Source: a candidate division WOR-3 bacterium
Lineage (GTDB): Bacteria; Hydrothermota; Hydrothermia; Hydrothermales; Hydrothermaceae
Length of the DNA: 64,000 nt
Direction of reading: 5' to 3'
Assembly: GCA_039803745.1 (NCBI GenBank)
Contig: JBDRZD010000001.1
Location: forward strand, 2,146 to 66,145
The translations under genes and the position numbers were made by a program. Every line of letters begins with the position of its first letter. Positions within the stretch are counted from its first letter, which is position 1. Below, in pieces: positions 14,630 through 36,661 of the stretch. The notes under the pieces were generated by a model. That model saw only the letters and a list, made by a program, of their open reading frames with translations. It was not told the DNA's origin and made no database searches.

Positions 14630-15911
14630 TTTTTATTTTTTCCTCATAATTTCTTGCAATTCTCTTTAATTTTTCAATATCAATAGTTTTTATCTCCCCA
14701 TTTTCAACAATTATTTTCCCATTGATAATTACATATTTAACCTGACGGGAATTTATTGAATAAACAATTGCTGAATATGGATTATATAAAGGTATTGATG
14801 GAATATCATCAATATCAATTATTATTATATCAGCCCTTTTACCTTCTTCAATAGAACCTATTTCTTTAAAATTTAAACAATTTGATGCATAAATTGTTGC
14901 CATTTTTATAATTTCCTCAGCAGGTAATATATCAGGTTTTAAATTGATTCCCTTTTGTAAAAATCCTGCTATTCTCATTGCCTCAAACATATCAAGATTA
15001 TTATTTGAAGCAACTCCATCAGTTCCAATTGATACTTTCATATTTTTTTCAATCATTTTATTAATAGGTGCAATTCCAGAGCCCAGTTTTAAATTACTTT
15101 CAGGATTATGGGAAATGGAAACATCTTTTTCTTTTAAAATTTCAATATCTTCATCATCAAGCCATACAGCATGCACAGCAAGAACTTTTGAAGATAAGAT
15201 TTCATTTTTATAAAGATATTTAACAGGTGATAGTCCAAATCTTTCAATTGACTCTTTGTGTTCATTTTTTGTTTCTGATAAATGAATATGTATTATTGTA
15301 TCATATTTTTCAGAAATTTCCTTACATTTTTTTAGAGTTTCTAAAGAACATGTGTATATAGAATGGGGTGCAATTCCTGGATGAATTATTTTATTATTTT
15401 TATAATTTTTTATAAAATTTTCTGCAATTTCTATAGCCTCCTTTGAATTTTTAAAATAAGGGGTTTCAAATTCAAGTATTCCAGGTGTTATAAATCCCCT
15501 TATTCCTGCGTCCTCACATGCTTTTGCAATCTCTTCACAGAAAAAATACATATCACAAAAAGAAGTTGTTCCTGAAAGGAGCATTTCCGCAATGCCAAGG
15601 AGCGATGAGTAATAGACAAAATCTTTTGATAAAAATTTTGATTCAATTGGCCATATATATTCTTTTAACCATTTTTCAAGGGGAAGGTCATCTGCAATTC
15701 CCCTTAAAAATGTCATGGGTATATGGGTATGGGTATTAATAAGACCCGGCATAATTATAGAATTTTTTGCATCTATTTTTGATTTATAATTCCTTTTTTT
15801 GTATTTTCCCTCTCCTACTTCTTTTATTCTTTCACCTTCAATTAAAATATATCCTTCTTCAACAGGCTTTGAACTGACCCTTAGGATAATTCCACCCTGA
15901 ATTAATATCAT
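14619..15911 (-). CDS. TRZ/ATZ-family amidohydrolase (MtaD/SsnA-like nucleoside or SAH deaminase)
   Basis: The track ORF extends to 16028, but its first 39 codons are the antisense of the tRNA. The real start is likely the ATG at 15909-15911 (MILIQGGIILRVSSKPVEEGYILIEGERIKEVG...). It has PGLINTHTHIPMTFLRG and the later HLSE/metal-binding motifs of this amidohydrolase family. Confidence 0.7.
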   Translation of the reverse strand: MILIQGGIILRVSSKPVEEGYILIEGERIKEVGEGKYKKRNYKSKIDAKNSIIMPGLINTHTHIPMTFLRGIADDLPLEKWLKEYIWPIESKFLSKDFVYYSSLLGIAEMLLSGTTSFCDMYFFCEEIAKACEDAGIRGFITPGILEFETPYFKNSKEAIEIAENFIKNYKNNKIIHPGIAPHSIYTCSLETLKKCKEISEKYDTIIHIHLSETKNEHKESIERFGLSPVKYLYKNEILSSKVLAVHAVWLDDEDIEILKEKDVSISHNPESNLKLGSGIAPINKMIEKNMKVSIGTDGVASNNNLDMFEAMRIAGFLQKGINLKPDILPAEEIIKMATIYASNCLNFKEIGSIEEGKRADIIIIDIDDIPSIPLYNPYSAIVYSINSRQVKYVIINGKIIVENGEIKTIDIEKLKRIARNYEEKIKNAI

Positions 15912-15922
15912 TTTGAAATTAA

Positions 15923-15994
15923 AGGCGGCGCCCGGAATCGAACCGAGGTAAGCGGTTTTGCAAACCGCTGCCTGAGCCACTCGGCCACGCCGCC
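15923..15994 (-). tRNA. tRNA-Cys (anticodon GCA); no encoded CCA
   Basis: Reverse complement: GGCGGCGTGGCCGAGTGGCTCAGGCAGCGGTTTGCAAAACCGCTTACCTCGGTTCGATTCCGGGCGCCGCC(T). It has a 7-bp acceptor stem, a GCGGT/ACCGC anticodon stem with loop TTGCAAA, a TTCGATT T-loop and a U discriminator. This is the only GC-rich island in its neighbourhood. Confidence 0.8.
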
Positions 15995-16022
15995 AAATTG
16001 AGTTTATAATTTTAACTTTTCT

Positions 16023-16052
16023 TTGCACTCTTTTTCAAGTAAGGTTTATAAT
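16023..16052 (+). promoter_or_regulatory. Candidate sigma70-type promoter: -35 TTGCAC, 18-bp spacer, -10 TATAAT
   Basis: TTGCAC at 16023-16028 and TATAAT at 16047-16052, about 12 nt before the ATG at 16065. It sits in the 70-bp divergent gap between the tRNA-Cys and the REC-kinase gene. Pattern match only. Confidence 0.35.
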
Positions 16053-16064
16053 ATAAAACTATTT

Positions 16065-17549
16065 ATGAAAAGAATACTTATAGTTGATGATGACGAAAGC
16101 ATAAGAATGATTTTTAAAAAGGTTCTTGAAAATTCAGGATATGAGGTTGAAACTGCATCTAGTGGGATTTATGCGCTAAGCATTCTTGAAAAAGAGAAAT
16201 TTGATGTTTACATTATTGATTTAAAAATGCCTGAAATGGATGGTATTACACTTTTAGAAGAAATAAAGAAAAGAGGTTATGAGGGTATTCCGATAATTTT
16301 AACTGCCTATGGGGATAAGGAAAGTGCTGTTTCTGCCTTAAAACTTGGCGCTTATGATTTTGTTGAAAAACCAATAAGTATAAATGACTTAAAATTTTCT
16401 ATTCAAAGGGCTATTGAGAAAAAGGCATTGATTGAAGAAAATATAAGATTAAAGGAATATCATAAAATAAATAGAATTATAGATGAGATTTTTAATTTTT
16501 TTGATGAAGAGGAATTTTTAAAAAATTTTCCGAGAATATTAGTAAGTGAATTAAATTTTGAGAGTGCAATGATATACATATATAAACCTCTTGAAAAGGT
16601 TTATTTTTATCCAAGATTTATCCCAGAAATTGAAAAATTTATAGACAGAGTTAAAGAAGAGTCTTTTTTATTTGAAGATGTTTATATGTTTCAAAAAATT
16701 TCACCCGATCAAGAAATTCAATCTATTGTTGCAGTGAAATCTTTTTTCCCGCTTATAGAGAGAGAAATAGAGACATTTCGTGTAGTTATAAAACAGGGGG
16801 AAATTTTCTGGAAACATCTTATTCTTAAAGAGAAATTGAAAGATACGCTTGATAAATTAAAAGCATATCATTTATCTGCCCTTAAAACAGGCAGGGTTTC
16901 GGTTATTGGAGAAATAAGTAATTTTTTAATAAAAAATTTTGAGGAACCCTTAAAAGATATTGAGATTGCTCTTTCTTTTTTGAAATCTCGTGAAGATTTG
17001 AGATATTTAAGAGAAACAGGGGAGATTTTTAGAGCATTAAATGATTTGAAAAGGATGTTGAATAATTTTAAAGGGATTATGCAATCATTACCTCTTCAAA
17101 GAAAAAAAACAAAAATAGGAGAACTTATAAATATTTGTTATGAAATTCTTCTGCCAAACTTCAAAGATTCAAAAGTTTTCTTCTGGAGGGAAGGTTTAGA
17201 AGAGGTAGAGATAGATGCTTTTGAATCCCTTTTAGAACATGTTTTTATACATCTTTTTTTAAATTCTCTTGATGCAATGAAAGAGGGAGGAGAATTGAGA
17301 GTTAAAATTTCAGAAGAAGAGGATATTGTAAAGATAGAAGTAATGGATACAGGATACGGTATATCTCCTAAAATAAGGGACAAAATTTTTGAGCCTTTTT
17401 TCACAACAAAAAAAGATGGGCTTGGTCTGGGGCTCTTTTTTGTAAAAAATGCAGTAGAAATGCATGGTGGGAAGATTTATTTTGAAAGTGAAGAAGGTGT
17501 TGGAACAACTTTTTATATAATTTTGCCTAAAAGATGGGAAGGATTATAG
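16065..17549 (+). CDS. Hybrid signalling protein: N-terminal response-regulator receiver domain, central unknown region, C-terminal HATPase_c histidine-kinase-like ATPase
   Basis: Likely start MKRILIVDDDESIRMIF... at 16065 (the track ORF starts earlier, at 16023). REC motifs are present (DD, IIDLKMPEMDG, TAYGDK). The C-terminus has VMDTGYGISPKIRDKIFEPFFTTKKDGLGLGLF...HGGKI (N, G1, G2 boxes). Confidence 0.7.
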   Translation: MKRILIVDDDESIRMIFKKVLENSGYEVETASSGIYALSILEKEKFDVYIIDLKMPEMDGITLLEEIKKRGYEGIPIILTAYGDKESAVSALKLGAYDFVEKPISINDLKFSIQRAIEKKALIEENIRLKEYHKINRIIDEIFNFFDEEEFLKNFPRILVSELNFESAMIYIYKPLEKVYFYPRFIPEIEKFIDRVKEESFLFEDVYMFQKISPDQEIQSIVAVKSFFPLIEREIETFRVVIKQGEIFWKHLILKEKLKDTLDKLKAYHLSALKTGRVSVIGEISNFLIKNFEEPLKDIEIALSFLKSREDLRYLRETGEIFRALNDLKRMLNNFKGIMQSLPLQRKKTKIGELINICYEILLPNFKDSKVFFWREGLEEVEIDAFESLLEHVFIHLFLNSLDAMKEGGELRVKISEEEDIVKIEVMDTGYGISPKIRDKIFEPFFTTKKDGLGLGLFFVKNAVEMHGGKIYFESEEGVGTTFYIILPKRWEGL

Positions 17550-18133
17550 AAATAATTTTTACTTTATTTATACTAATTTTAACATTTCCCTTTTGGATTG
17601 TAATAGGTATTTTAATAAAACTGGAAAGTGACGGGCCTGTACTTTTTACTCAGGAAAGGGTTGGAAAGGATTTAAAGATTTTTAAAATATATAAATTTAG
17701 GACGATGTACATGGATCAAGAGGAAAGACTAAAGGATTACTTGAGGAAAAATCAAAAAGCAAAAAAAGAGTGGGAAAATTATAGAAAACTTAGGAGTTTT
17801 GATCCAAGGGTTACAAAGATGGGAAAAATATTAAGAAAATTCAGTTTTGATGAAATTCCCCAGATTTTGAATGTAATAAAAGGAGATATGAGTTTGGTTG
17901 GTCCGAGACCTTATTTAAAAGAAGAGGTTGTTTACATACCTCCAGAGAATTATGAGATATTTAAGGTGAAACCAGGTATTACAGGGCCATGGCAGGTTAG
18001 TGGAAGGAATAAGATACCTTTTAATGAGAGAATAAGGATTGAAAAAGATTATGCAATGAAAAAGAATTTATTTAAAGACATTGGTTATTTGTTTAAGACG
18101 ATAAATTCAATAGTAAATGGAGAAGGGATATGA
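17534..18133 (+). CDS. Small single-TM sugar phosphotransferase (Bac_transf, PglC/WbaP C-terminal-domain-like)
   Basis: 199 aa with an N-terminal TM helix and DEIPQILNVIKGDMSLVGPRPY, the signature of polyisoprenyl-phosphate hexose-1-P transferases. Confidence 0.8.
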   Translation: MGRIIEIIFTLFILILTFPFWIVIGILIKLESDGPVLFTQERVGKDLKIFKIYKFRTMYMDQEERLKDYLRKNQKAKKEWENYRKLRSFDPRVTKMGKILRKFSFDEIPQILNVIKGDMSLVGPRPYLKEEVVYIPPENYEIFKVKPGITGPWQVSGRNKIPFNERIRIEKDYAMKKNLFKDIGYLFKTINSIVNGEGI

Positions 18134-20778
18134 AAAGTTCTAAAAAAAGAGTAAAAAAATATGTGTATGTTTTTGGTGGTGGAAAAGCTGAAGGAAGTGC
18201 AAAAATGAGAGACCTCCTTGGAGGGAAAGGTGCAGATCTTCATGAGATGTCGAGAATCGGAATAAATGTTCCTCCTGGATTTACAATTACAACAGAAGCA
18301 TGCATATACTATTTTGAAAAAGGGCGTTTCCCAAAGGAACTTTATGACCAGATTAAAAAGGGAATCAATTTTCTTGAAAAAGTAACAGGTAAAAAATTTG
18401 GTGATCCGGATAATCCATTGCTTGTTTCAGTTAGAAGTGGAGCAAGGGTTTCAATGCCTGGTATGATGGATACAGTTTTGAATCTTGGTATAAATGATGA
18501 AATAGCTGAGGGACTTGCGAAATTGACAAAAAATAGGAGATTTGCTTTAGATGTTTATAGAAGATTTATACAGATGTTTTCTGATGTTGTTAAAGGTGTT
18601 CCCAGAGAAAAATTTGAGGAAGTTTTAAGTGAGAAAAAGAAAGAGAAAGGTGTGCAATTTGATACCGAGTTAACCGAAGAGGATCTGGAGGAAATTGTAA
18701 AAAAGTATAAGGAAATATATAAAGAGTATAAGAAGGAAGATTTTCCTCAGGATCCCTGGGAAGCGCTTTATTCAGCAATAGAAGCGGTTTTTAATTCCTG
18801 GAATAACAAAAGGGCAATAGAGTATAGAAGGCTTTATAATATTCCAGATACTTGGGGGACAGCCTGTAATATTCAAACGATGGTTTTTGGAAATATGGGT
18901 TATGATAGTGCAACAGGTGTTGCCTTTAGCAGAAATCCTGCAAATGGTGAGAAGGAGATATTTGGAGAATATCTTTCAAATGCTCAAGGAGAGGATGTAG
19001 TTGCAGGGATAAGGACTCCAAGACCCATTTCTGAAATGGAAAAGGAAATGCCAAAAGCTTATAGAGAACTTGTAAAAATTTTCAAAAAACTTGAAAAGCA
19101 TTATAGAGATATGCAAGATATGGAATTTACAATAGAAAAAGGAAAAGTTTATATGCTTCAAACAAGAAAGGGTAAAAGAACACCAAGAGCAAATGTTAAA
19201 ATAGCAGTTGATATGGTTAAAGAAAAGATAATTACAAAGGAAGAAGCTATAATGAGAGTTTCCCCCTCTGATATAGACCACCTTCTTCATCCACAGATTT
19301 CTTCTTCCTATAAGGGAACTCCTATAGCAAAAGGACTTCCTGCTTCTCCTGGTGCTGCTAAGGGTAAAGTTATATTCAGTGCTGATAAAGCCCAGGAACT
19401 TGGTTCAATGGGTGAAAGTGTAATTTTAGTCAGGTTTGAAACCTCTCCTGATGATATCCATGGAATGGCAAAGTCAAAAGGAATACTCACTGCAAGAGGA
19501 GGGATGACGTCCCATGCAGCAGTTGTTGCAAGAGGGATGGGTAAACCCTGTGTTGTTGGGTGTGAGGCAATTCATATAGATTATTCTAAAGGTATTTTTG
19601 AAGTAAATGGTAAGGTTGTAAAAGAAGGGGAAATGATTACAATAGATGGAACAACAGGAAATATTTATCTTGGTGATGTTCCCCTTGAAATGCCTGAAAT
19701 GTTTCCTGAACTTGATGAACTTTTAAAATTTGCAGATGAAATAAGAAGACTTGGTGTAAGGGCAAATGCTGATACACCAAAGGATGCTAAAAAGGCACTT
19801 GAATTTGGTGCAGAAGGAATAGGACTTTGCAGAACAGAACATATGTTCTTTGAAGGTGAAAGAATATATGCAATGCAAGAAATGATACTTGCAGACAATG
19901 AAGAAGAGAGAAGAAAAGCCCTTGATAAACTCCTTCCACTTCAAAGAGAAGATTTTTATGAAATATTTAAAGTAATGGATGGTCACCCTGTTGTTATAAG
20001 GACACTTGACCCACCCCTTCATGAATTTTTACCAAAAGATGAGGAAAGTATAAAAGAGCTTGCTGAGAGAATGAATAAAAGTTTTGAGGAAGTAAAAAAG
20101 AAAGTTGAAGCACTTCAAGAAGCAAACCCAATGCTTGGCCATAGGGGTTGCAGGCTTGGTATCACTTATCCTGAGATTACAGAAATGCAGGCAAGGGCAA
20201 TATTTGAGGCTGCAGCAAAGGCTTTAAAAGAGGGTATAAAGGCAATACCTGAAGTGATGATCCCAATTGTTGCAATTCCTGAGGAACTTATTTTGCAGAA
20301 AGAGATCGTTGATAGGGTTGCAAAAGAAGTTATGGAAAAGGAAGGGATAAAAATAAATTATACTGTTGGAACAATGATAGAGATTGCAAGGGCCTGTATT
20401 GTTGCTGACAAGATTGCAAAGCATGCTGCTTTCTTTTCTTTTGGAACAAATGATTTGACACAAACTGTATACGGTTTTTCAAGGGATGATATAGGTAAAT
20501 TTTTAGCAGCTTACATAGAAAAAGGAATATTAAAGGCTGACCCATTTGTGACAATAGATCAAGAAGGTGTTGGTGAATTTATGAAAATATGTATTGAGAA
20601 AGGGAGAAAGGCAAATCCGAATTTGAAAATAGGAATATGTGGTGAGCATGGTGGTGAACCTGAATCTGTAAAATTCTGTCATAGAATAGGGCTTACATAT
20701 GTAAGTTGTTCTCCTTATAGAATTCCAATTGCAAGGTTTGCAGCAGCACAGGCAGTTCTTGAAGAAAGAAAAAAATAA
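18130..20778 (+). CDS. ppdK: Pyruvate, phosphate dikinase
   Basis: 882 aa. An N-terminal ATP-grasp/PEP-utilizing region (VYVFGGGKAEGSAKMRDLLGGKGADLHEM), the phosphohistidine region GGMTSHAAVVARGMGKPCVVG, and a C-terminal PEP/pyruvate TIM barrel (GLCRTEHMFF, FFSFGTNDLTQ). Confidence 0.9.
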   Translation: MKSSKKRVKKYVYVFGGGKAEGSAKMRDLLGGKGADLHEMSRIGINVPPGFTITTEACIYYFEKGRFPKELYDQIKKGINFLEKVTGKKFGDPDNPLLVSVRSGARVSMPGMMDTVLNLGINDEIAEGLAKLTKNRRFALDVYRRFIQMFSDVVKGVPREKFEEVLSEKKKEKGVQFDTELTEEDLEEIVKKYKEIYKEYKKEDFPQDPWEALYSAIEAVFNSWNNKRAIEYRRLYNIPDTWGTACNIQTMVFGNMGYDSATGVAFSRNPANGEKEIFGEYLSNAQGEDVVAGIRTPRPISEMEKEMPKAYRELVKIFKKLEKHYRDMQDMEFTIEKGKVYMLQTRKGKRTPRANVKIAVDMVKEKIITKEEAIMRVSPSDIDHLLHPQISSSYKGTPIAKGLPASPGAAKGKVIFSADKAQELGSMGESVILVRFETSPDDIHGMAKSKGILTARGGMTSHAAVVARGMGKPCVVGCEAIHIDYSKGIFEVNGKVVKEGEMITIDGTTGNIYLGDVPLEMPEMFPELDELLKFADEIRRLGVRANADTPKDAKKALEFGAEGIGLCRTEHMFFEGERIYAMQEMILADNEEERRKALDKLLPLQREDFYEIFKVMDGHPVVIRTLDPPLHEFLPKDEESIKELAERMNKSFEEVKKKVEALQEANPMLGHRGCRLGITYPEITEMQARAIFEAAAKALKEGIKAIPEVMIPIVAIPEELILQKEIVDRVAKEVMEKEGIKINYTVGTMIEIARACIVADKIAKHAAFFSFGTNDLTQTVYGFSRDDIGKFLAAYIEKGILKADPFVTIDQEGVGEFMKICIEKGRKANPNLKIGICGEHGGEPESVKFCHRIGLTYVSCSPYRIPIARFAAAQAVLEERKK

Positions 20779-20787
20779 AAAGGGAAA

Positions 20788-23517
20788 ATGAAAATAGATG
20801 AAAAAAAATTAAGAATTATCCTTTTTTCTTCTGTTACATTTTTTGTATTCATAATATATTTTTTAACAACAGCACCTACAGTAGTTTTCTGGGATGTAGG
20901 TGAGTTCCTTGCAACTTCCTATATTCTTGGTATACCCCATCCACCAGGAACTCCTCTTTATGTAATCCTTGGCAGGTTCTTTTCCATTCTTCCCTTACCT
21001 TTAAATACAATTAAAAAGATAACACTTATTGCAATTCTTTCAGGTGCTTTTTCAGCAGGATTTGCTTATATAATAACAGTAAAGATAATTGATTTATTTA
21101 GAGGAAATGTTTCAAAATGGATACAGCATTTATCAGGAATTGTTGCAGGGCTTATATCTCCATTTGCCTATACAACATGGTGGTCAAGCATTGAAGCAGA
21201 AACTTATGCACCTTCAAACTTTTTTATGCTCCTTTCAACCTATCTTGCCCTCCTTTGGTGGGAAAACAGAGAAAAAAATGATTCTGTTAAATATCTTATT
21301 TTAATAATCTATCTTTTAGCACTTGGTTCAGGTATCCATCTTTCCGCCCCTTTTATATTTCCTGCAATGTTTGTTTTTGTTCTTTTTACAAAACCCAAAA
21401 TAGTTCTTGATTTTGAACTTCTTGGAACATTTTCATCTTTTTTAATTCTTATTTCAGCGATATTTCCTACTTTTACACCGCCTTCATGGGGAAAAGCAAT
21501 AGTATTTTATCTCTTAGGGGCAGGTGGTGGAGCCATATTTCTTTATGCAAAGAAATATTTTAAAGAGTTTGGATTTAAGGAAGGCATTTTCTTTGCGTTA
21601 GTTACAATCTCAATTGTTTCTGCCTATATGGGTTATGTATTTCTCTTTGTAATTGGTTCCATTCTTACCTTTTTATCTATTCTTATCTTTGGTAAATTGT
21701 ATCTTGAGTATAAGGGAGTAAGTTTAATCCTTGCCTTAATTGCTGTTTCGGCGGAATTCTATCTCCTAATAAGAGCACATCATAATCCATCAATAAATGA
21801 ATCTGATCCAAAAACATGGCAGGCATTCTGGGATGTCCTTTTAAGAAAACAATATCCACCTGCTGATGTATTCCCAAGGAAAGTGCCTTTTTTTGAACAA
21901 TTAAAACTTTTCTGGACATATTTTGCAGGAAGACCTGGTGATATAGGTATGCCTCCTCAGTATGTTCCATTAATTTTTATTTTAGGATTTATAGGTTTTG
22001 CATTGCATATTGCCTATGAAAGAAAAAGTTTTTCCCTTCTTGGAACAGCACTTATTTTAACAACACTTGGTCTTATTTTTGTTTTGAATTTAAAATATTC
22101 TGCAACAGATCCAAGACCTTATATACCTGAAGAACTCAGGGAAGTAAGGGATAGGGACTATTTCTTCATACCAGGTTTTTTCTATTTTGGAATATATGCA
22201 GGGATTGGATTTTTTGGTGTTTTTAAACTTGCTATAGAAAATCTAAAGTTTTTTAGGAAAATCAGCATTTATGTTGCTTTAATCTTTGCTTTACTTTTAC
22301 CTTTATGGCAGATTTCAGCCTATTATAAAATGGTGGATAGGTCAAGAAATTATTCCTGTGAGGATTATGCATATAATCTTTTAAACTGTGCAGAGGATAA
22401 AGGTGTTCTTTTTACAAATGGAGACAATGATACATTCCCTTTATGGTGTGCTCAAGAGGTTCTTGGAATCAAAAAATCTGTAATTATTGCAAATTTATCC
22501 CTTTTAAACACAAACTGGTATAATAAACAACTTAAAAGACTTGGTGTCCCTTTCTATTTTACAGAGGAGGATATGGATAAATTAACACCATTTATAGGTC
22601 CTGATGGTGAGATTGTTCTTGTTAGAGATTTAGTTATAAGGGATATGCTTGCAGCAAATTTTGGCTATGAACTTCCAAAAGATCCAAAGGAATATGTTAC
22701 ACTTCCAAGGATTGGTTTAAGATTTCCCAAAATATATCTTTCTCCTGCTGAGGAGTTTGCTCAAAAGGTTATAGAAGGAAGGAAGCCAAAATTGCCCATA
22801 TATTTTTCAATAACCTGTGAAACAAAAGTTTATAGGGGATTTAAAAATTATTTAATTCTTGAAGGAATGGTTTATAGAGTTGTTCCCTATAAAGTAAATA
22901 CAGAAACCCCTCTTGGCTATGCTGTTGATATGGAAAAAACAGATTCTCTATTCTTTAAGGTTTTTAAATATAGAGGATTCACTGATGAAAATAAATTCTT
23001 CATAGATAGAACCCATCAGAGAATTCTCTCAAATTACCGTGCACCACTTACAGTTCTTGCCATTCTTTATTTTGAAAAAGATGATGTGGAAAGAGCAATA
23101 AATACAATTGAATTTGCTTTAAATTTTGAGGGCAATAAAAATTTGATGGATAAGGATGACAAAAGAATTTCTTACTTTATAAAACTTCAACTTGCTCAAT
23201 TCAGTATAAAGGGTTCTTATTATGACAGGGCTATATCTATTTGTAATGAACTTTTAAAAGAAGAAAAAAATAGCATTGTTTATACTTTAATGGGAGATGC
23301 CTATATGGGGAAGGGGGAGTTAAATTTGGCAAAGAATTATTATAATCTTGCTTTAAATATACCCCCGCCTTTTATGAAAACCTATGCTTCCCTTATGGAA
23401 CTTTATTCAATGGAAAACAAAAGAGATAGTTTAAAGATTATTTTTGAAATGGCGAAAAAGAGATTTGGAGAAAATCCCAATCTTGATTCCTTAAAGGCGA
23501 AATATAAAATTGATTGA
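20788..23517 (+). CDS. DUF2723-family polytopic membrane protein (PMT/GT39-like fold) with C-terminal TPR repeats
   Basis: 909 aa. The N-terminal signature TAPTVVFWDVGEFLATSYILGIPHPPGTPLY matches DUF2723, followed by more than 10 TM helices. The last ~200 aa look TPR-like (GDAYMGKGELNLAKNYYNLALNI). Confidence 0.65.
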   Translation: MKIDEKKLRIILFSSVTFFVFIIYFLTTAPTVVFWDVGEFLATSYILGIPHPPGTPLYVILGRFFSILPLPLNTIKKITLIAILSGAFSAGFAYIITVKIIDLFRGNVSKWIQHLSGIVAGLISPFAYTTWWSSIEAETYAPSNFFMLLSTYLALLWWENREKNDSVKYLILIIYLLALGSGIHLSAPFIFPAMFVFVLFTKPKIVLDFELLGTFSSFLILISAIFPTFTPPSWGKAIVFYLLGAGGGAIFLYAKKYFKEFGFKEGIFFALVTISIVSAYMGYVFLFVIGSILTFLSILIFGKLYLEYKGVSLILALIAVSAEFYLLIRAHHNPSINESDPKTWQAFWDVLLRKQYPPADVFPRKVPFFEQLKLFWTYFAGRPGDIGMPPQYVPLIFILGFIGFALHIAYERKSFSLLGTALILTTLGLIFVLNLKYSATDPRPYIPEELREVRDRDYFFIPGFFYFGIYAGIGFFGVFKLAIENLKFFRKISIYVALIFALLLPLWQISAYYKMVDRSRNYSCEDYAYNLLNCAEDKGVLFTNGDNDTFPLWCAQEVLGIKKSVIIANLSLLNTNWYNKQLKRLGVPFYFTEEDMDKLTPFIGPDGEIVLVRDLVIRDMLAANFGYELPKDPKEYVTLPRIGLRFPKIYLSPAEEFAQKVIEGRKPKLPIYFSITCETKVYRGFKNYLILEGMVYRVVPYKVNTETPLGYAVDMEKTDSLFFKVFKYRGFTDENKFFIDRTHQRILSNYRAPLTVLAILYFEKDDVERAINTIEFALNFEGNKNLMDKDDKRISYFIKLQLAQFSIKGSYYDRAISICNELLKEEKNSIVYTLMGDAYMGKGELNLAKNYYNLALNIPPPFMKTYASLMELYSMENKRDSLKIIFEMAKKRFGENPNLDSLKAKYKID

Positions 23518-24526
23518 AGAAATTGAAAAATTGTCCTCTCTTTTTGGTCCTTCAGGGAAAGAGGAAGAAGTTAGAGAATACATTAAAAACTCTATAAGCT
23601 CTTTTGCTGATGAGATACACGAAGATAGTTTCGGAAATCTTTATGTTAAAAAGGGAAAAGGAAAACCTCGTGTTCTTTTATGTTCTCATATGGATGAGGT
23701 TGGATTTATAATAAAGGAGATAGACGAAAAAGGATATCTTAAGTTTTCTCCAATAGGTGGCATAGAGCCAGAAACTGCTATTGGTAAAAGGATTATTTTT
23801 GAAAATAAAAGAAAAGGAGTGATAGGTTATAAGCCCATTCATTTACAGGATAAAGAAGAGAAGGAGAAAAAAATTTCCTTTGATGATCTTGTTATAGATG
23901 TGGGTATGGGAAAAGGAGAAGTAAATAAGTTTTTTTATAAGGGAATTTATGCAGTTTTTGATACCTCCTTTGGTAAATTAAATAAAAAATTTTATAAAGG
24001 AAAAGCCTTTGATGATAGAATAGGCTGTGCTATTTTGATGGAAATAATAAAAAATTTTAAACCTGATTTTGAACTATTTTTTCTTTTTTCCACTCAAGAA
24101 GAGGTTGGTTTAAGAGGAGCAAAGATTGGTGCGGAAAAAATTAAACCTGATATTGGGTTTGTAATTGAATGCACTGCTGCAAGTGATTTTTATAGAGAAG
24201 ATAAAGAGGATTTTCCTGCACTTTGTAAAGGCCCTGTTTTAACGACTGTGGATAGATCATGCATAGTAGACTTTGAAATTTTAGAAATTATAAAGAAAGT
24301 TGCGAAAAAAAATAATATACCATTTCAATATAAAAAACCTTTAATTGGTGGAACTGATGCAGGGAATATTCAGATTGCAGGTAAAGGAGTGAAAATGGGG
24401 ATAGTTTCTGTTACTGCAAGATACATTCATTCTCCTGTTTCAATAATAAATGAAGAAGATTTAAAAAATACCTATTTTCTTTGTTTAAAATTTTTAAAGG
24501 AGATAAAAAAATGGATGAAATTTTGA
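23510..24526 (+). CDS. M42-family aminopeptidase (FrvX/TET-like)
   Basis: 338 aa with the family metal ligands present: CSHMDEVGF, DDRIGCA, QEEVGLRGA, and a C-terminal IHSP. Confidence 0.75.
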   Translation: MIEEIEKLSSLFGPSGKEEEVREYIKNSISSFADEIHEDSFGNLYVKKGKGKPRVLLCSHMDEVGFIIKEIDEKGYLKFSPIGGIEPETAIGKRIIFENKRKGVIGYKPIHLQDKEEKEKKISFDDLVIDVGMGKGEVNKFFYKGIYAVFDTSFGKLNKKFYKGKAFDDRIGCAILMEIIKNFKPDFELFFLFSTQEEVGLRGAKIGAEKIKPDIGFVIECTAASDFYREDKEDFPALCKGPVLTTVDRSCIVDFEILEIIKKVAKKNNIPFQYKKPLIGGTDAGNIQIAGKGVKMGIVSVTARYIHSPVSIINEEDLKNTYFLCLKFLKEIKKWMKF

Positions 24527-25425
24527 AGGAATTGACATATGAATTTGGTGCATCAGGACATGAGGAAAGGTTAAGGGAAAGTATTAAGAATTTTTTAAAG
24601 GGTTTTAAAATTAACGAGGACAATTTTGGCAATTTAATAATTTCAAATACCTCTTCACCAAAATTCTTTTTTTTAACAGGAATTGATGAATCAACATTTT
24701 TTATAAAAGAAGAAGAAAAAGGGCTTTATAAGTTTTCTCTTATTGGTGATTATATACCAATAAATATAATAGACCGCTTTGTTGTTTTTAAGGATGGAAA
24801 AAGGGGAATAATAAGAAATTTGAAAGAAAAAGGTGAGCCTGAAATTTCTGACCTGAGAGTTGAAATTTTAGGTAAGAAAAAATCCGAAATAGGGGAGGCT
24901 TTTATAATAGAACCTTTCTTTTATAATGAAAAAAATCTTTATATCTCCTCAAATCTTGATTCAAGAATTTGCGCGAGTTTTTTAATTCATTTCTTAAAGA
25001 ATCATGAAAACTTTCCCTTGAAGATCGTCTTTCTTGTGAAGACAAAATTAAGTGAAAAAGGTGCGTTACCTGCTATGATTGATGAGAATCCCGAATTTAT
25101 TTTTGTTTTGGGTAGTGCACCTTGTAAGGATGGAATTGAAACTGGAAGAGGACCTGTGATAAGTTTTATAGAAAAGAATTATGTTTTGCCTTCTTATTTA
25201 AAAGGAAAATTGTTAAAGATTTTAGAAAAAGAGAATGTTCCATTTCAAAAAAGGCTTTCAGAAGATTATTCAAATTTCAATTTTTATCTTTTCCATTCAG
25301 GTTATAAAGATTCCTTTTTTATTTATTTACCCGTGAAATATAAAAACAGTGTATATAAAGTTCTTGAAAAAAAGGATTTAGAAACACTTGAAAGACTCTT
25401 TGAAATTTTATTAAAAAAACTTTAA
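24511..25425 (+). CDS. M42-like paralog with degenerate active site (probable non-catalytic subunit)
   Basis: Start at ATG 24511 (MDEILKEL...), 8 nt after an AAGGAG. The fold-level pattern matches the upstream M42, but the HxD metal motif is LTGIDESTF (His lost), the EE pair is reduced to SEKG, and the C-terminal His is absent. Confidence 0.5.
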   Translation: MDEILKELTYEFGASGHEERLRESIKNFLKGFKINEDNFGNLIISNTSSPKFFFLTGIDESTFFIKEEEKGLYKFSLIGDYIPINIIDRFVVFKDGKRGIIRNLKEKGEPEISDLRVEILGKKKSEIGEAFIIEPFFYNEKNLYISSNLDSRICASFLIHFLKNHENFPLKIVFLVKTKLSEKGALPAMIDENPEFIFVLGSAPCKDGIETGRGPVISFIEKNYVLPSYLKGKLLKILEKENVPFQKRLSEDYSNFNFYLFHSGYKDSFFIYLPVKYKNSVYKVLEKKDLETLERLFEILLKKL

Positions 25426-25437
25426 ACTATAAAACTT

Positions 25438-26163
25438 ATGAAAAAAGAAGGTTATTACATTTTTATTTCTACATTAAAAGGTGGAAAACCAAAAGAGATT
25501 TTTCTTTCAGGTTTAAAAATAAAGATTTTAAAAGTTTTAATTTTTTCTCTTGCTATCTTTATTCCTGTTTTTCTATTCTCTGTTTATTATTTTTACCGTA
25601 ATTTTTATGAATATATTCTTCTTAAAAAAAAGATAAAAGATTATGAAGCAAGAATAAAGAAAATTGAAATTCTTGAAGAAAAACTTGAAAAGATTATAAA
25701 ATATGCCAAGCAGGTTAATTATATGCTTACCGCGAAAGAGGAAAATATTAAAGAAATTAAAAAAGAAAAAGTGGAGATAAAAAAGGAAGCATTTTTGGAA
25801 GAGGATTTTATCTCTCCATTAAAGGGTATAATAACAAGAGGATTTTCCGAAGAACATCCAGGGGTTGATATATTTGCACCCTCAGGCAGTCCTGTTTTTT
25901 CTTGTGGAAATGGTGTAGTTATTGAAAAGAATTTTTCTCAAATTCTTGGTCTTTATGTTAAAATAAAGCATGAAGGTAATATTTATTCCTTATATGCACA
26001 TTTAAAAAGAGTTTTTGTAAATAAAGGTGATTTTGTTAAAAAGGGTGATGTAATAGGTGAGGTTGGTTCAACAGGAGAAACAAGTGGTTCCCATCTTCAT
26101 TTTGAAATGAGAAAGGATAATAAACCCTTTTACCCTTCTTTTATATTTTTAAAAGAATTTTAG
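25438..26163 (+). CDS. M23-family (LytM-domain) peptidase, membrane-anchored
   Basis: 241 aa. N-terminal TM helix, coiled-coil stretch, HPGVDIFAPSGSPVFS...LYAHL...GSTGETSGSHLHFEMR (HxxxD and HxH motifs). Confidence 0.7.
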   Translation: MKKEGYYIFISTLKGGKPKEIFLSGLKIKILKVLIFSLAIFIPVFLFSVYYFYRNFYEYILLKKKIKDYEARIKKIEILEEKLEKIIKYAKQVNYMLTAKEENIKEIKKEKVEIKKEAFLEEDFISPLKGIITRGFSEEHPGVDIFAPSGSPVFSCGNGVVIEKNFSQILGLYVKIKHEGNIYSLYAHLKRVFVNKGDFVKKGDVIGEVGSTGETSGSHLHFEMRKDNKPFYPSFIFLKEF

Positions 26164-26172
26164 GGGGTGTTT

Positions 26173-28239
26173 ATGAAGGTTTTAAAAAATATAATGATAT
26201 TTTTTACAGGGATCCTTTTCCTTTTATGTGTGAGAATTGAAAGAAGACCTGTGCCAGGGAGTGAAAAAGGAGGAATTCTAAGAGTGGGAATGGTAAAAGA
26301 GCCCCAGAATTTGAATCCAATTTTCCCTCCCCTTTTAGAGCCAAATCCCTTTTATGATCTTATATTTCAACCACTCTTTAGAATAGAAAAGGGAAAAGTA
26401 ATTCCCTGTCTTGCTGAGTCCTGGGAATTTTCAGAAGATTTAAAATCGATAACTTTTTATTTAAGAAAAAATGTTAAATGGCATGATGGAGAAGAATTTA
26501 CTTCAGAAGATGTTATTTTTACTTATAATCTCATAATTGATCCAGAGATAAACTCTCCTTTGAGGTCTCAATTCAGGTTTATTACAAGGGCTACTCCTCT
26601 CGGGAAATATGCTGTGAAATTTGATTTTTCAAAAATTTATTTATATGAACTTTTTGATTGCAATTTCTATCCTTTACCCTCTCATTTATTAAAAGATAAA
26701 AAAGAAATAAGTAAGTTTTCAGAAAATCCAGTAGGTATTGGTCCTTATAAATTAAAAAGATGGATAAAGGGAAATTTAATTGAACTTGAAGCAAATGAAT
26801 CTTATTTTCTTTTTATTCCACCTATTAAAACAATTTATTTCAAATTTTATCCTTCCCCTGAAATAGTTTCTCTTGCTTATGAACAGGGAAGAGTTGATAT
26901 AGCCCTTGATCTTACACCAAGGGAAATCAATTACCTAAAAGAAAAGAATAAAAATTTTAAAACGTCTCCTGGTAATAGAGTGTTTTTTATAGGTTTTAAT
27001 TTACAAAAGTTTCCTTATAATGACATAAACTTCCGAAAGGCCATAAATCTTTTGATAAATAAAAGCGAGATTATATCAAAAGTTATGGAAGGGTATGCAG
27101 AGATAACTTTTTCCCCTATTCCTTCTAATCACTGGGCGTATGATTCCACATTGAGTGATGCAAAGGTTGATTTAAGTGGAGCAAAAAGAATTCTTGAAAG
27201 TATTGGTTTTAAAAATACTGATAGAGATCCCTATCTTGAACTTTTGGGAAAAGATTTTACCTTAGAAATCATCACTGAAGATGAACCTGAAAAGATAAAA
27301 ATTGCTGAAAGTATTAAAAAATATGTTGAGGATGTAGGGATAGCATGCGAGGTTAATGCCCTTTCAGGTCTGGATTTTGTTAAAAGACTTAGGGAAAGAA
27401 ACTTTAGTATTTATCTTTTCTCATGGACCTGTGAAGAAAAAATTGATTTTACTCCTTTATGGCATTCTCAATATGGAATATTCAACTTTACGGGTTTTAA
27501 AAATGAGGAACTTGATAAGGCTATTGAAAATTCAATTCTTACTATAAATCAGATAGAAAGTAAAAGAAATTTTAGGCTTGCACAGAGAATACTCAATGAA
27601 AATTTACCAGCCATTTTCTTATTTACTAACAAAAACTTAATTGCTTATTCTGAAAGGGTTAAAGGGCTTGATGCATACCTTGATTTTCCAATACAAAATC
27701 TGGATGTTGTTTATATTCCAAAGGAGATTCAAGAAGTAAGGGTTGAGTTTGAAATAGAAGAAACTAAAGAAGTTAAAAAGGAAGAAGCCCCTCTTCCACC
27801 ACCTCCCCCAAAAGAAGCTGTTCCACCTGTTCGTGCTGAGGAAATTTTAAGGGCTGAGCTTGTAAAAAGGGAAGCACCGCCTCCTCCTCCACCTGAAGTA
27901 AAAGAAGAAACTCCTCCACCTGCCCCTGAGGTTAAAGAAGAAGTTCCACCACCAAAACCTGAAGAGCCAAGAATTGTTGCAGAGGCAAAGATCTTAAAAG
28001 GAGTTCAACCAGAATATCCTGAAATAGCAAAAAAATTAGGTTTAAAAGGAATGGTTATTGTGAGAGTCCTTGTAGACAAAAATGGGAAAGTTATAGATGC
28101 ACGTATTTTGAAATCATCAAATTATCCTATCCTTGATGAGGCTGCTTTAAATGCCTCAAAGGAATTTATTTTTGAACCTGTGAAAGATGAGGAAGGAAAA
28201 CCTGTTGAATTTTTTACAACAATACCATTCAGATTCTAA
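26173..28239 (+). CDS. Fusion protein: lipoprotein-type solute-binding protein family 5 (Opp/Dpp-like) + proline-rich TonB-like linker + TonB C-terminal domain
   Basis: Likely start at ATG 26173, after a GGGGG run. The signal peptide has an LLC lipobox. The SBP_bac_5 body runs ~500 aa (RVGMVKEPQNLNP...). It then continues in frame into EEAPLPPPPPKEAVPP...EAPPPPPPEVKEETPPPAPEVKEEVPPPKPEEP, and then PEYPEIAKKLGLKGMVIVRVLVDKNGKVIDARILKSSNYPILDEAALNASKEFIFEPV, a classic TonB_C pattern. Confidence 0.6.
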   Translation: MKVLKNIMIFFTGILFLLCVRIERRPVPGSEKGGILRVGMVKEPQNLNPIFPPLLEPNPFYDLIFQPLFRIEKGKVIPCLAESWEFSEDLKSITFYLRKNVKWHDGEEFTSEDVIFTYNLIIDPEINSPLRSQFRFITRATPLGKYAVKFDFSKIYLYELFDCNFYPLPSHLLKDKKEISKFSENPVGIGPYKLKRWIKGNLIELEANESYFLFIPPIKTIYFKFYPSPEIVSLAYEQGRVDIALDLTPREINYLKEKNKNFKTSPGNRVFFIGFNLQKFPYNDINFRKAINLLINKSEIISKVMEGYAEITFSPIPSNHWAYDSTLSDAKVDLSGAKRILESIGFKNTDRDPYLELLGKDFTLEIITEDEPEKIKIAESIKKYVEDVGIACEVNALSGLDFVKRLRERNFSIYLFSWTCEEKIDFTPLWHSQYGIFNFTGFKNEELDKAIENSILTINQIESKRNFRLAQRILNENLPAIFLFTNKNLIAYSERVKGLDAYLDFPIQNLDVVYIPKEIQEVRVEFEIEETKEVKKEEAPLPPPPPKEAVPPVRAEEILRAELVKREAPPPPPPEVKEETPPPAPEVKEEVPPPKPEEPRIVAEAKILKGVQPEYPEIAKKLGLKGMVIVRVLVDKNGKVIDARILKSSNYPILDEAALNASKEFIFEPVKDEEGKPVEFFTTIPFRF

Positions 28240-33925: not shown

Positions 33926-36661
33926 ATGCTTGAAATTTTAATTTTATTTTTACTTGGGTTTGGACAGAATAAAATTCAAACAAAAAATCTAAAATGGGAA
34001 ATATGTGAAACTCCACATTTTATGATTTACTTTACAAAAGGTGGGGAGCCTCTTGTTGATTTTGCAGTACCTGTTCTTGAAAATACATATACAAGGCTTT
34101 CCAATATGCTTGGTATTGATGTAAAAACAAAAGTTCCTGTTATAATTTATAATTCTCCAAATGATTTTAGGGAAACAAATATAATTCTTGACTTGATAGA
34201 AGAAGGGATTGGTGGATTTACAGAGTTTTATAAAACAAGGGTTGTTGTTCCTTTTGATGGTTCTTATAGTTCTTTTGAACATGTACTTATGCATGAGCTT
34301 GTCCATGTATTTGAATTTAAATTATTTTATACAGGTATTTATGAACTTGCTCAGGAGCCTTTCTTCTCTATTCCTCTTTATATTATGGAGGGATTCCCTG
34401 AATATGTCTCATTAGGTCTTGATCCTGAAACTGAAGGTTTTGTTAGAGACCTTATATTAAACGACCTTTTCCCATCTTTAAAGAATCTCGAATATTATGG
34501 CGGATACATTGTTTATAAACTTGGCCAAGTATTTTTCTATTTTTTATATGATACATATGGAGAAGAAAAAATAGCTGAATTTTTACACGCCTTAAAATTT
34601 AGAAAATCCGTTGATAAAGCCTCTTTGAAAGTATTTGGAATTTCCCAAGATGCTCTTTCAGAAAGATTTTCTTATTATTTAAAAAAGAAAATTTACAAAG
34701 AGATTGAAAAGTATGATTATCCTGAAGATATAGGTAAGAAGATAACAGATCATAAAAAAGAGGGTGGCTTCATGAATGTTGGTCCTGCAATTTCTTATGA
34801 TGGTTCTTATATTACTTTTCTTTCCGATAGAAAAGATTATTCCGATATTTATCTTATCTCAATATACGCTCCTGAAAAAGTAAAAAAAATTGTTTCTGGA
34901 GAAAGGGTTCCCTCACTTGAGAATCTGCACCTTTTGAGACCCGGCATATGTTTTTCACCAGATGGAAAATACTTAATTTTTACATCCCATGGCAACGGAA
35001 AGGAAATGATAAACTTTTACGATCTAAAAACAAATAAAATAATTAAATCCTATTCCTATAAAGAATTTGACGGAATTTATACACCTGATTTCTCGCCCGA
35101 CGGGAGTAAAATAGTTTTTGTTGGAATAAAAGATGGTAAAAGTGACCTTTATATTCTTAATCCATCAAATGGTAAAATACTCGAAAGAATTACAAATGAT
35201 TTCTTTGACGAAAGGGATCCTTTATTTATGGAAGAAGAGATCCTTTTTGTTTCTGATAGAACTCAAGACGGAAGCTATGGAAGTTATGCAATATTCTCAT
35301 ATTCTTTAAAGGATAAATCTATAAGGAAGATAACCCCTTATCTTGGAAACATATCTCATCCCTTCAAAATAGAGGATAGTATTTATTTGTTTGTTTATAA
35401 AGAAAAGGATGCCTCCAACATATTTGCTTATGATAAGTTAAATAACAAGTTTTACCAAATTACAAGTTTCCCAACCTGGATAAGAGAGACAGGTTATGCA
35501 AAGAAAAGTAATGACATTGTATGTAGTATTTTATGGAAGAATGGATACAATATTTTTTATATAAAAAAAGAAAAAATAATTGAAAAAAATAAATGGAAAG
35601 AAGTAGAATTAGAAGAAAAACCTGGAAAGAAAAGAAAAGGAACAGAAAATGCTGAATGGAAGGAATATTCAAATTTCTTTACAATAGATTGGCTTGGTGG
35701 AACTATTGGATACGCGCCTCAATATGGTTATTATGGTAATGTTGGTTTGCAAGCCTCTGATATTCTTGGTAATTTGCGAATTCAATTCTTTACTGACATG
35801 ACAGGAGGAGATTTAACTGTTTCAAACTGGCTTTTTGGAATTTATTATTTACCAAAGAAAATAGATTATCTCTTGGAAATATATCAATTTTTCCCTTTAT
35901 ACCCCTATGACTCAATTTATTATTCCTATGAAAGAAATTTAGGCTTTAATTTTATATCTTTAATCCCTTTAAATAAATTTTTCAGGTTTGAAATTGGAAC
36001 CGGTTTCACTTATATTGAAAGAATAATTGATAGGGACCTTTATTTTCCCATTGATAGAATGGATTATTTCATAAATTTACCCTTTTATTTTGGGACAGTA
36101 TTTGATCGTTCAACTGATTTTTATTATTTAGGAGTGCAAGATGGGGAAAGATGTTATTTAGGTTTTGAATTTGGTTTTATCCCTGAAAATTATTTGAAGT
36201 TTGTTTTTGATTCAAGAAAATATTGGAGAATTACACCCCGTTCAAATTTTGCATTTAGAATCTTATTCGCTGGAAAGCAGGATGGAGAAAGAATATTGCC
36301 ATTCTGGCTTGGTGGCCCAAATAGATTAAGGGGATATGATTTATTTGAACTTGTCTATCCCTATATATTCTTATCCAGTTTTGAATTAAGGGTGCCTTTC
36401 CTGGATAATTTAAAACTATCTTTTCCTTTACCTTTAAAAATTGGTAATATAAGAGGTATTTTCTTTTTTGATACAGGTATTGGGTTTAAGGAGATTGATA
36501 TGGCAAGTTTTAAAAAAGAAATATTTCATTCCGACTTGGGTTATGGATTTAGATGGAATATCGGATATTTTGATTTAAAATTTGATTTCGCATACAAGAT
36601 AGAAAAAAATAAATTTTTTAAGAAACCACTTATATGGATTACTTTTGGAAGGGATTTCTAA
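33926..36661 (+). CDS. Large outer-membrane chimera: N-terminal HExxH gluzincin-like domain, PD40/TolB-like beta-propeller repeats, C-terminal Omp85/surface-antigen-type beta-barrel
   Basis: 911 aa. Signal peptide. HVLMHELVHVFEF, with Glu residues ~20-30 aa downstream. PD40-like repeats (FSPDGKYLIFTSHGNGK, FSPDGSKIVFVGIKDGKSDLYILNPSNGK, LFVSDRTQDGSYG). The last ~300 aa are Gly/aromatic-rich alternating beta-strands ending ...ITFGRDF (terminal Phe). Confidence 0.55.
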   Translation: MLEILILFLLGFGQNKIQTKNLKWEICETPHFMIYFTKGGEPLVDFAVPVLENTYTRLSNMLGIDVKTKVPVIIYNSPNDFRETNIILDLIEEGIGGFTEFYKTRVVVPFDGSYSSFEHVLMHELVHVFEFKLFYTGIYELAQEPFFSIPLYIMEGFPEYVSLGLDPETEGFVRDLILNDLFPSLKNLEYYGGYIVYKLGQVFFYFLYDTYGEEKIAEFLHALKFRKSVDKASLKVFGISQDALSERFSYYLKKKIYKEIEKYDYPEDIGKKITDHKKEGGFMNVGPAISYDGSYITFLSDRKDYSDIYLISIYAPEKVKKIVSGERVPSLENLHLLRPGICFSPDGKYLIFTSHGNGKEMINFYDLKTNKIIKSYSYKEFDGIYTPDFSPDGSKIVFVGIKDGKSDLYILNPSNGKILERITNDFFDERDPLFMEEEILFVSDRTQDGSYGSYAIFSYSLKDKSIRKITPYLGNISHPFKIEDSIYLFVYKEKDASNIFAYDKLNNKFYQITSFPTWIRETGYAKKSNDIVCSILWKNGYNIFYIKKEKIIEKNKWKEVELEEKPGKKRKGTENAEWKEYSNFFTIDWLGGTIGYAPQYGYYGNVGLQASDILGNLRIQFFTDMTGGDLTVSNWLFGIYYLPKKIDYLLEIYQFFPLYPYDSIYYSYERNLGFNFISLIPLNKFFRFEIGTGFTYIERIIDRDLYFPIDRMDYFINLPFYFGTVFDRSTDFYYLGVQDGERCYLGFEFGFIPENYLKFVFDSRKYWRITPRSNFAFRILFAGKQDGERILPFWLGGPNRLRGYDLFELVYPYIFLSSFELRVPFLDNLKLSFPLPLKIGNIRGIFFFDTGIGFKEIDMASFKKEIFHSDLGYGFRWNIGYFDLKFDFAYKIEKNKFFKKPLIWITFGRDF

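Follow-up and report, generated by a model that had tools for sequence, protein, structure and literature searches.

A family-5 solute-binding lipoprotein joined in one reading frame to a TonB C-terminal domain in candidate division WOR-3 bacteria

Here we describe a gene of a candidate division WOR-3 bacterium, located at positions 26173 to 28239 of the 64-kb stretch of contig JBDRZD010000001.1 that was analysed (hereafter the window), in which a single open reading frame (ORF) encodes four parts: a lipoprotein signal peptide, a family-5 solute-binding protein (SBP), a Pro-rich spacer and a TonB C-terminal domain (TonB_C). An earlier note on this DNA had proposed just such an in-frame succession of SBP lipoprotein, Pro-rich rod and TonB_C, and this was borne out in one ORF by domain matches in both Pfam and NCBIfam, with the two Pfam families it had named, SBP_bac_5 and TonB_C, both matched. 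TonB C-terminal domains are understood almost solely as the end of a proton-motive-force transducer, and periplasmic SBPs as free or lipid-tethered shuttles. A phylum-wide weld of the two, with no connection to a motor and no permease genes as neighbours, points to a relay from outer-membrane transporters to SBPs, or to a new, non-energetic use of TonB_C. A relay of this kind was proposed for Escherichia coli FhuD and BtuF and has never been settled. Each of the two domains is small, soluble and readily expressed, so the function is directly testable even though the organisms are uncultivated. Automatic annotation labels the protein either ‘TonB family protein’ or ‘peptide/nickel transport system substrate-binding protein’. 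Each name covers half of it, and recognition of the fusion would also correct them.

The TonB_C module is genuine by sequence and predicted fold. It occupies aa 613-690 (28003..28236, + strand; residue numbers throughout follow the 690-aa version of the ORF described below), carries the QPEYPExA...G signature and the last β-strand of the family, and is modelled with a predicted local distance difference test (pLDDT) score of 89-97. Pfam TonB_C (PF03544) matches aa 614-690 with an E-value of 1.7e-20 and 73.7 bits against a cutoff of 24.6, and NCBIfam tonB_Cterm (TIGR01352) gives 65 bits against a cutoff of 27.1. When the PDB was searched with the C-terminal module, the matches were confined to genuine TonB C-terminal domains. 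A TolA-type identity was rejected, since PF13103 scored 17.1 bits, below its cutoff of 22. The final β-strand is nearly invariant (E681, I686, P687, F688, F690). In E. coli TonB, strand β3 of the C-terminal domain pairs with the TonB box (PMC11658791), and we assume that the last strand of the fusion is its counterpart. Between the two main clades of the family, TonB_C is the most conserved segment at 43% identity, followed by the SBP at 34% and the spacer at 23%. With the TonB_C of a canonical WOR-3 TonB (locus L073, described below), the fusion module likewise shares 43% identity, about the same as with its orthologues in other clades. As a separate observation, one 643-aa protein in our collection (P0233) carries five tandem, near-identical TonB_C domains behind one N-terminal hydrophobic segment.

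The family-5 (cluster C) SBP domain spans aa 36-520 (26272..27726, + strand), as delimited by Pfam, by PDB relatives and by a model in which pLDDT is mostly 90-97. Pfam SBP_bac_5 (PF00496) matches aa 77-421 with an E-value of 1.2e-79. The domain retains the full two-lobe fold, with TM-scores of 0.8-0.88 normalised to the target (Foldseek). By combined sequence and fold search, the nearest solved relatives are Bacillus subtilis AppA (nonapeptide), Campylobacter jejuni NikZ (Ni-L-His), CtaP, CcNikZ-II, GbpA and DppA, and MppA is found further down the list of fold matches at rank 16. Of the NCBIfam SBP equivalogs, Opp4A scores highest, yet reaches 193 bits where its cutoff is 650. Judged by these scores, the fused SBP is assignable to no characterised specificity subfamily (Opp, Dpp, Nik and others).

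The protein begins with a lipoprotein signal peptide (26173..26229, + strand), consisting of MKVLKN, a hydrophobic stretch and the lipobox F-L-L-C, with the lipidated Cys at residue 21 (codon 26227-26229). This lipobox is non-canonical at position -1, where Leu is a trait of the Hydrothermus clade; most orthologues have textbook lipoboxes (ILSC, IFSC, VLGC, ISAC, IAGC). The Cys itself is invariant, being present in 11/11 sequences of one alignment, in 34/34 orthologues and also in divergent members, and every family member has a positively charged N-terminus followed by a hydrophobic stretch and this Cys. From the lipid anchor, a tether of about 14 aa (26230..26271, + strand) leads to the globular domain, as placed by alignments and by the first β-strand of the model, which starts at aa 37.

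Between the two globular modules lies a Pro/Glu/Lys/Val-rich spacer (aa 521-612; 27727..28002, + strand), delimited by its composition, its conserved length and a pLDDT below 50 outside one helix. In the window protein it is 92 aa long, with 25% Pro, 24% Glu, 11% Lys and 11% Val. The earlier estimate of about 110 aa differs from this by choice of boundary, and the richness in these four residues stands as it was described. Across 34 orthologues the spacer is kept at 79-112 aa while its sequence is not kept, the composition drifting from P/E/K to P/T/A. Its sole conserved element is the helical motif RAEEILRAELVKR (aa 556-568; 27832..27870, + strand), recognised both by conservation in the 34 orthologues and in the AlphaFold2 model, where the helix runs from 557 to 568 at a pLDDT of about 75. 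The family consensus is PE(K/R)(L/I)LEAA, with E558 and L561 conserved in at least 97% of the 34 orthologues, and variants of the motif are present in the divergent members P0152, P0140, P0139 and P0135. A PPKPS motif stands just before TonB_C. Over the whole AlphaFold2 model the mean pLDDT is 88.4, with both globular modules confident and the linker disordered apart from the one helix.

The gene is a single ORF on the + strand, running from an ATG at 26173 to a TAA stop codon at 28237..28239 and encoding 688 aa, as read from the ORF listing and from the sequence. This 688-aa product is identical to a database protein (P0001). The ORF caller's version starts at a GTG and is 690 aa long (26167..28239). 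A Shine-Dalgarno-like element, AGGGGGTG (26162..26169, + strand), with its AGGGGG run, lies 4-5 nt before the ATG and overlaps the TAG (26161-26163) of the upstream M23 peptidase gene. Because of this spacing the ATG at 26173 is likely the true start, in agreement with the start chosen in the earlier note. In the DNA of the SBP-TonB junction in the window, we looked for a stop, a frameshift or a long homopolymer and saw none. At the 3′ end, the longest ORF for the downstream RibD gene overlaps the final 53 bp of the fusion gene (28187-28239). The true RibD start may be further downstream, since orthologous loci have alternative RibD start calls (L001 versus L002).

The same fusion is found well beyond this contig. 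When 5.8 billion proteins were searched, both Pfam domains were present in 13 of the clusters matched, the most distant at 34% identity. An exhaustive HMMER search of 1.84 billion representatives gave matches from end to end in about 16-17 clusters (at 50% identity), one of which includes fragments named from candidate division TA06. Among word-indexed profile searches, the second gave no extra members and the third, with a 96-aa TonB_C query, gave no matches. When one genome per GTDB species was scanned, full-length matches came only from WOR-3, Ca. Hydrothermus pacificus, Ca. Stahlbacteria, a ‘TA06 DG_78’ bin and other metagenome-assembled genomes (MAGs). Matches from other phyla are to the SBP only, since their alignments end near residue 500-530. 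In the DNA that was fetched there are 40 single-ORF fusions of 675-713 aa, and one more that is cut by a contig end. Counted as species-level genomes, the carriers number at least 35 and belong to WOR-3, Ca. Hydrothermus, Ca. Stahlbacteria and TA06; five complete WOR-3 chromosomes (CP070795, CP070664, CP070834, CP070686 and CP070705) have the fusion. The fusion that the earlier note had suggested looking for in other genomes is thus there, in 40 independently assembled loci with a continuous frame.

We also compared the ratio of nonsynonymous to synonymous substitution rates (dN/dS, Nei-Gojobori) between the window gene and four orthologues, which is 0.06-0.13 in the SBP, 0.21-0.30 in the spacer and 0.11-0.27 in TonB_C. 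All three segments are therefore translated in this frame and under selection. These results bear directly on the possibility that an SBP gene and an adjacent tonB gene were joined through a sequencing or assembly error. The frame is indeed broken in two related contigs, by a C-homopolymer in the linker of L093 (1600-2043) and inside the SBP domain of L037 (8409-10398, from a MAG of 3.8x coverage), so that gene callers yield an ‘SBP’ and a small ‘TonB_C protein’. In both cases the second frame is open through the break and the downstream piece has no signal peptide or transmembrane (TM) segment, and we therefore regard these as damaged fusions. For the same kind of reason, a natural two-gene form at L093 (P0141, a 515-aa SBP followed by a 115-aa TonB_C ORF) was considered and rejected as a frameshift at the linker C-run. 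Against an artefact stand the 40 independent loci that each keep a single ORF, the in-frame selection spanning the junction and a window junction without a long homopolymer. An artefact is effectively refuted, and we give it practically no chance.

The fusion does not appear to replace the energy-transducing TonB. Its sole hydrophobic segment is the lipoprotein signal peptide and it contains no S-x3-H motif, which fits the earlier statement that there is no N-terminal TonB-type TM anchor. After signal peptide cleavage the lipid anchor alone would remain, and one fusion-carrying genome (L073, WOR-3 bin53) has a separate canonical Ton cluster on the - strand (14137-19531), 5-9 kb from the fusion; the conclusion that the protein cannot be energised as TonB is energised seems reasonable on both counts. 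The L073 cluster encodes ExbB, two ExbD paralogues, TonB, a 363-aa lipoprotein without a Pfam hit and a TonB-dependent transporter (TBDT). The canonical TonB (17402-18022) is 206 aa long, with a TM helix and a TonB_C match of 89 bits, and has about 100 residues between the TM helix and the YP motif, comparable to the arm of the fusion. The TBDT (14137-16113) has a Plug and a barrel, preceded by an N-terminal CarboxypepD_reg domain. Plug-domain TBDTs are also encoded in L017 (9158-11599), L025 (14185-16620) and L037. Since a complete ExbB-ExbD-ExbD-TonB-TBDT set exists separately in a genome that carries the fusion, the fusion is not the energy transducer of the phylum. It is an additional, TM-less TonB-family protein derived from a normal TonB.

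The SBP of the fusion likewise has no permease beside it. Among the window genes scanned with Pfam there is no ExbB/ExbD, TBDT or ATP-binding cassette (ABC) permease, and tblastn with verified ExbB, ExbD, TBDT and OppB/OppC sequences found no homologue in the 64-kb window. Both results agree with the earlier observation that no ExbB/ExbD or Opp permease genes are adjacent. Neither exbB nor exbD was found in the window or in the roughly 40 loci, apart from the L073 cluster, which has its own TonB. For the permease, we used a verified OppB/OppC pair as tblastn queries and restricted the comparison to evaluable loci, 35 fused and 42 non-fused. An OppB/OppC homologue lies within 10 kb at 0/35 fused loci and within 1 kb at 15/42 of the non-fused relatives (Fisher p = 6e-5). 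The same search over 754 kb of WOR-3-type sequence gave no permease homologue. On this contrast, the fused SBP is an orphan.

We propose, tentatively and as something possible rather than probable, that the fusion is a lipid-anchored SBP whose TonB_C docks on an outer-membrane transporter, stationing the SBP beneath it. The lipid anchor would most likely sit in the outer leaflet of the inner membrane, as it does for other lipid-anchored binding proteins, with the SBP domain about 14 residues away from it. The arm of about 90 residues, mostly disordered or of polyproline type, would then span the periplasm from the C-terminus of the SBP, and TonB_C would most likely dock by β-strand addition on the TonB box, or on an equivalent periplasmic strand of a TBDT. 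Placed under the outer-membrane gate, the SBP could catch imported substrate at its exit and hand it to an ABC permease whose genes lie at another site in the genome, and the pulling would be done by the canonical ExbB-ExbD-TonB rather than by the fusion. An SBP anchored in the inner membrane and reaching the outer membrane is the simplest reading because the protein combines a lipid anchor, a constrained SBP, a length-conserved TonB-like spacer and a canonical TonB_C, and coexists with TBDTs and TonB. As far as sequence goes, docking on either a TonB box or peptidoglycan is compatible with the TonB_C similarity, the conservation of the last strand and the spacer length. Carter 2006 and James 2009 (both as cited in PMC3813593) reported non-covalent contacts of TonB with FhuD and with BtuF in E. 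coli. By analogy, the fusion may perhaps be a covalent form of these contacts, a suggestion that we offer just as tentatively.

Several points weigh against this proposal. The residue at +2 after the lipobox Cys is V/A/T/S/K across the family, which bears on the membrane of anchorage. As for the ligand class, T372 and a variable E423 (E/G/S/D) align to Arg355 and Asp408 of DppA in an alignment of about 22% identity; E373, E424, K425 and D427, which adjoin the positions aligned to these DppA anchors, are conserved. With a cognate permease found at 0/35 loci, the fusion may feed no transporter. Of about 40 loci, just 4 have a TBDT gene within 10 kb, in each case on the opposite strand and separated from the fusion by unrelated genes; none is operonic, and linkage to TBDT genes was rejected. 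Co-occurring TBDT genes, which the earlier note had advised looking for, are therefore present (in L073, L017, L025 and L037) without a conserved linkage. Finally, a TonB_C that is not energised would be expected to compete with the genuine TonB for the TonB box, and periplasmic TonB fragments do inhibit transport in E. coli.

Other arrangements of the same parts were considered. In a more ambitious variant, which seems distinctly unlikely, the fusion would form the core of a trans-envelope importer: the SBP would be docked on an inner-membrane ABC importer while TonB_C holds the TonB box of a TBDT, bridging the membranes either for hand-off or for gating of the outer transporter by the ligand state of the SBP. 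If true, this would provide a naturally occurring ‘Rosetta stone’ for TonB as a scaffold of SBPs, an idea that is in dispute, and the first import counterpart of the tripartite efflux bridges. A different possibility, somewhat unlikely in our view, is that TonB_C binds peptidoglycan or another fixed component of the envelope, so that the orphan SBP is immobilised or the protein serves as a lipid-to-wall tether; the SBP part might even recognise wall peptides, like MppA, which is among its structural neighbours at rank 16. The C-terminal region of TonB reportedly associates with peptidoglycan. In the Hydrothermus clade the gene is directly 3′ of an M23 peptidoglycan endopeptidase, and other neighbours are envelope genes (MscS, LPG synthase, sugar-nucleotide enzymes, Mla). 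TonB-like proteins with wall-related roles also exist, such as SjdR in Anabaena (PMC8597729, PMC8262864). However, the M23 adjacency is a lineage synteny that is missing in most WOR-3 genomes, and TonB_C is of the canonical type, closely resembles the phylum's genuine TonB and shows no sign of a separate wall-binding motif. The SBP is moreover the most constrained segment (dN/dS 0.06-0.13), and since its dN/dS is the lowest, recognition of a specific ligand or partner fits better than a passive tether.

The competition with TonB mentioned above could itself be the function. TonB_C would then compete for TonB boxes under the control of the SBP ligand state or of the linker helix, giving feedback inhibition or prioritisation of import. 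A TM-less TonB_C that cannot transduce energy yet retains the features of a TonB-box binder is consistent with this, as are the coexisting canonical Ton system, the short conserved helix within an otherwise free linker and the lost permease linkage. The idea is entirely inferential, though, and a phylum-wide, housekeeping-like conservation in variable gene contexts is not specific to regulation; we are aware of no earlier case of a TonB competitor gated by an SBP, and consider this account very doubtful. It is also conceivable, if rather improbable, that the family-5 fold was recruited for peptide or protein handling or as a chaperone, with the arm and TonB_C as a localisation device. Mycobacterial LpqW and the SgrR regulators are family-5 folds in jobs other than import. 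Such a role would suit the 35/35 evaluable loci with no permease nearby, the NCBIfam scores far under every equivalog cutoff, the DppA ligand-anchoring residues that are not conserved in the low-identity alignment given above, and the peptidase genes (M42, M23, M19) that recur nearby. On the other side, the full two-lobe fold is retained, the nearest solved relatives are mostly transport binding proteins (AppA, NikZ, CtaP, DppA), and orphan SBPs such as MppA still work with permeases encoded elsewhere.

The gene neighbourhood varies between lineages. The window is part of an ordinary diderm chromosome, with LptD, an Omp85-family protein, TamB and YajC present. The order M42-M42-M23-fusion-RibD is shared by the Hydrothermus clade and a single relative at 38% identity, inside a longer syntenic block. 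A functional link to the upstream M23/M42 peptidases was rejected on this basis, the synteny being clade-limited and part of the long block. In most WOR-3 genomes, GT2, LPG synthase, UDP-glucose dehydrogenase, an epimerase and MscS are encoded upstream of the fusion, and a convergent PglZ response regulator and a kinase downstream; in another lineage the upstream genes are those for Mla and an M19 dipeptidase. Peptidases recur beside the fusion or its non-fused relatives, namely an M19 dipeptidase (L090, 2853-3800), two M16 peptidases (L086, 3340-6008), and two M42 peptidases with M23 (window, 23510-26163), and give a weak hint of a peptide-related function. The tandem M42 paralogues of the window (23510-25425, + strand) differ in their Pfam matches, and the second, which matches weakly (E-value 4e-11 versus 5e-85), may be degenerate or non-catalytic.

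Other features of the window are recorded here. On the + strand, 33926-36661 encodes a 911-aa protein composed of Peptidase_MA_2, a PD40/Tricorn-like β-propeller and a C-terminal Omp85-type barrel, with an orthologue at L001 (17862-20639). The protein is similar to the ‘outer-membrane TolB-like ancestor’ considered in PMC12204202. Pfam gave no match at E <= 0.01 for either of two consecutive ORFs (222 aa and 983 aa; 43378-46994, + strand) that follow the gene for a large TPR protein. In the region of about 14000-16100, three signals coincide near 16.0 kb: a change in the sign of the GC skew, the minimum of the cumulative skew and a switch in gene orientation (minus to the left, plus to the right). 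The site is a possible replication origin; dnaA was not seen nearby.

Compared with known systems, the fusion shares with canonical TonB of the E. coli type a Pro-rich spacer of about 90-100 aa followed by a TonB_C with the YP signature and conserved last strand. It differs in lacking the TM helix that couples to ExbB/ExbD, in place of which it has a cleavable lipoprotein signal, in the insertion of a 485-aa SBP between anchor and spacer, and in not being encoded with exbBD. With the cluster C SBPs (AppA, 1xoc; NikZ, 4oet; CtaP, 5isu; DppA, 1dpp; MppA, 4toz) it has in common the two-lobe fold, the signature motifs and the lipid anchoring found in many SBPs, whereas the C-terminal spacer and TonB_C are additions and OppB/C genes never follow (0/35). 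MppA, LpqW and SgrR show the family-5 fold encoded away from permeases, but without a periplasm-spanning arm or TonB_C. Since both domain tests are passed while TM/ExbBD coupling, permease linkage and subfamily assignment all fail, the fusion should not be filed simply as ‘TonB’ or ‘OppA’.

Full-text literature searches for this architecture or for WOR-3 Ton systems found no description, in agreement with the earlier note, whose author knew of no such tether, and the terms ‘WOR-3’ and ‘solute’ are absent from the main text of a 2025 survey of TonB/TolA evolution. Fusions of SBP_bac_5 with PG_binding_1 in Paceibacterota (P0061, P0091) were considered as a parallel and set aside, their PG_binding_1 match being faint. 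These two proteins of Paceibacterota (candidate phyla radiation), one of them at L088 (1642-3606, P0061), are family-5 SBPs of roughly 650 aa that lack a permease gene within 5 kb, and may represent another anchored orphan SBP. Reuse of a TonB_C or Pro-rich module for docking or localisation is seen in SjdR of Anabaena, in GltJ/AgmX of myxobacteria, which has a TonB_C-like end, in the LIC_10042 family and in the MxcH receptor with its N-terminal TonB_C-like segment; none of these has an SBP domain or a lipoprotein anchor so arranged. The contacts of E. coli TonB with FhuD and BtuF resemble the fusion in that the periplasmic region of TonB is associated with a transport SBP, and their authors proposed that the SBP is thereby positioned under the outer-membrane transporter (as cited in PMC3813593). 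In the fusion, by contrast, the link is covalent, the SBP belongs to cluster C rather than cluster A, and the TonB part has no connection to the motor.

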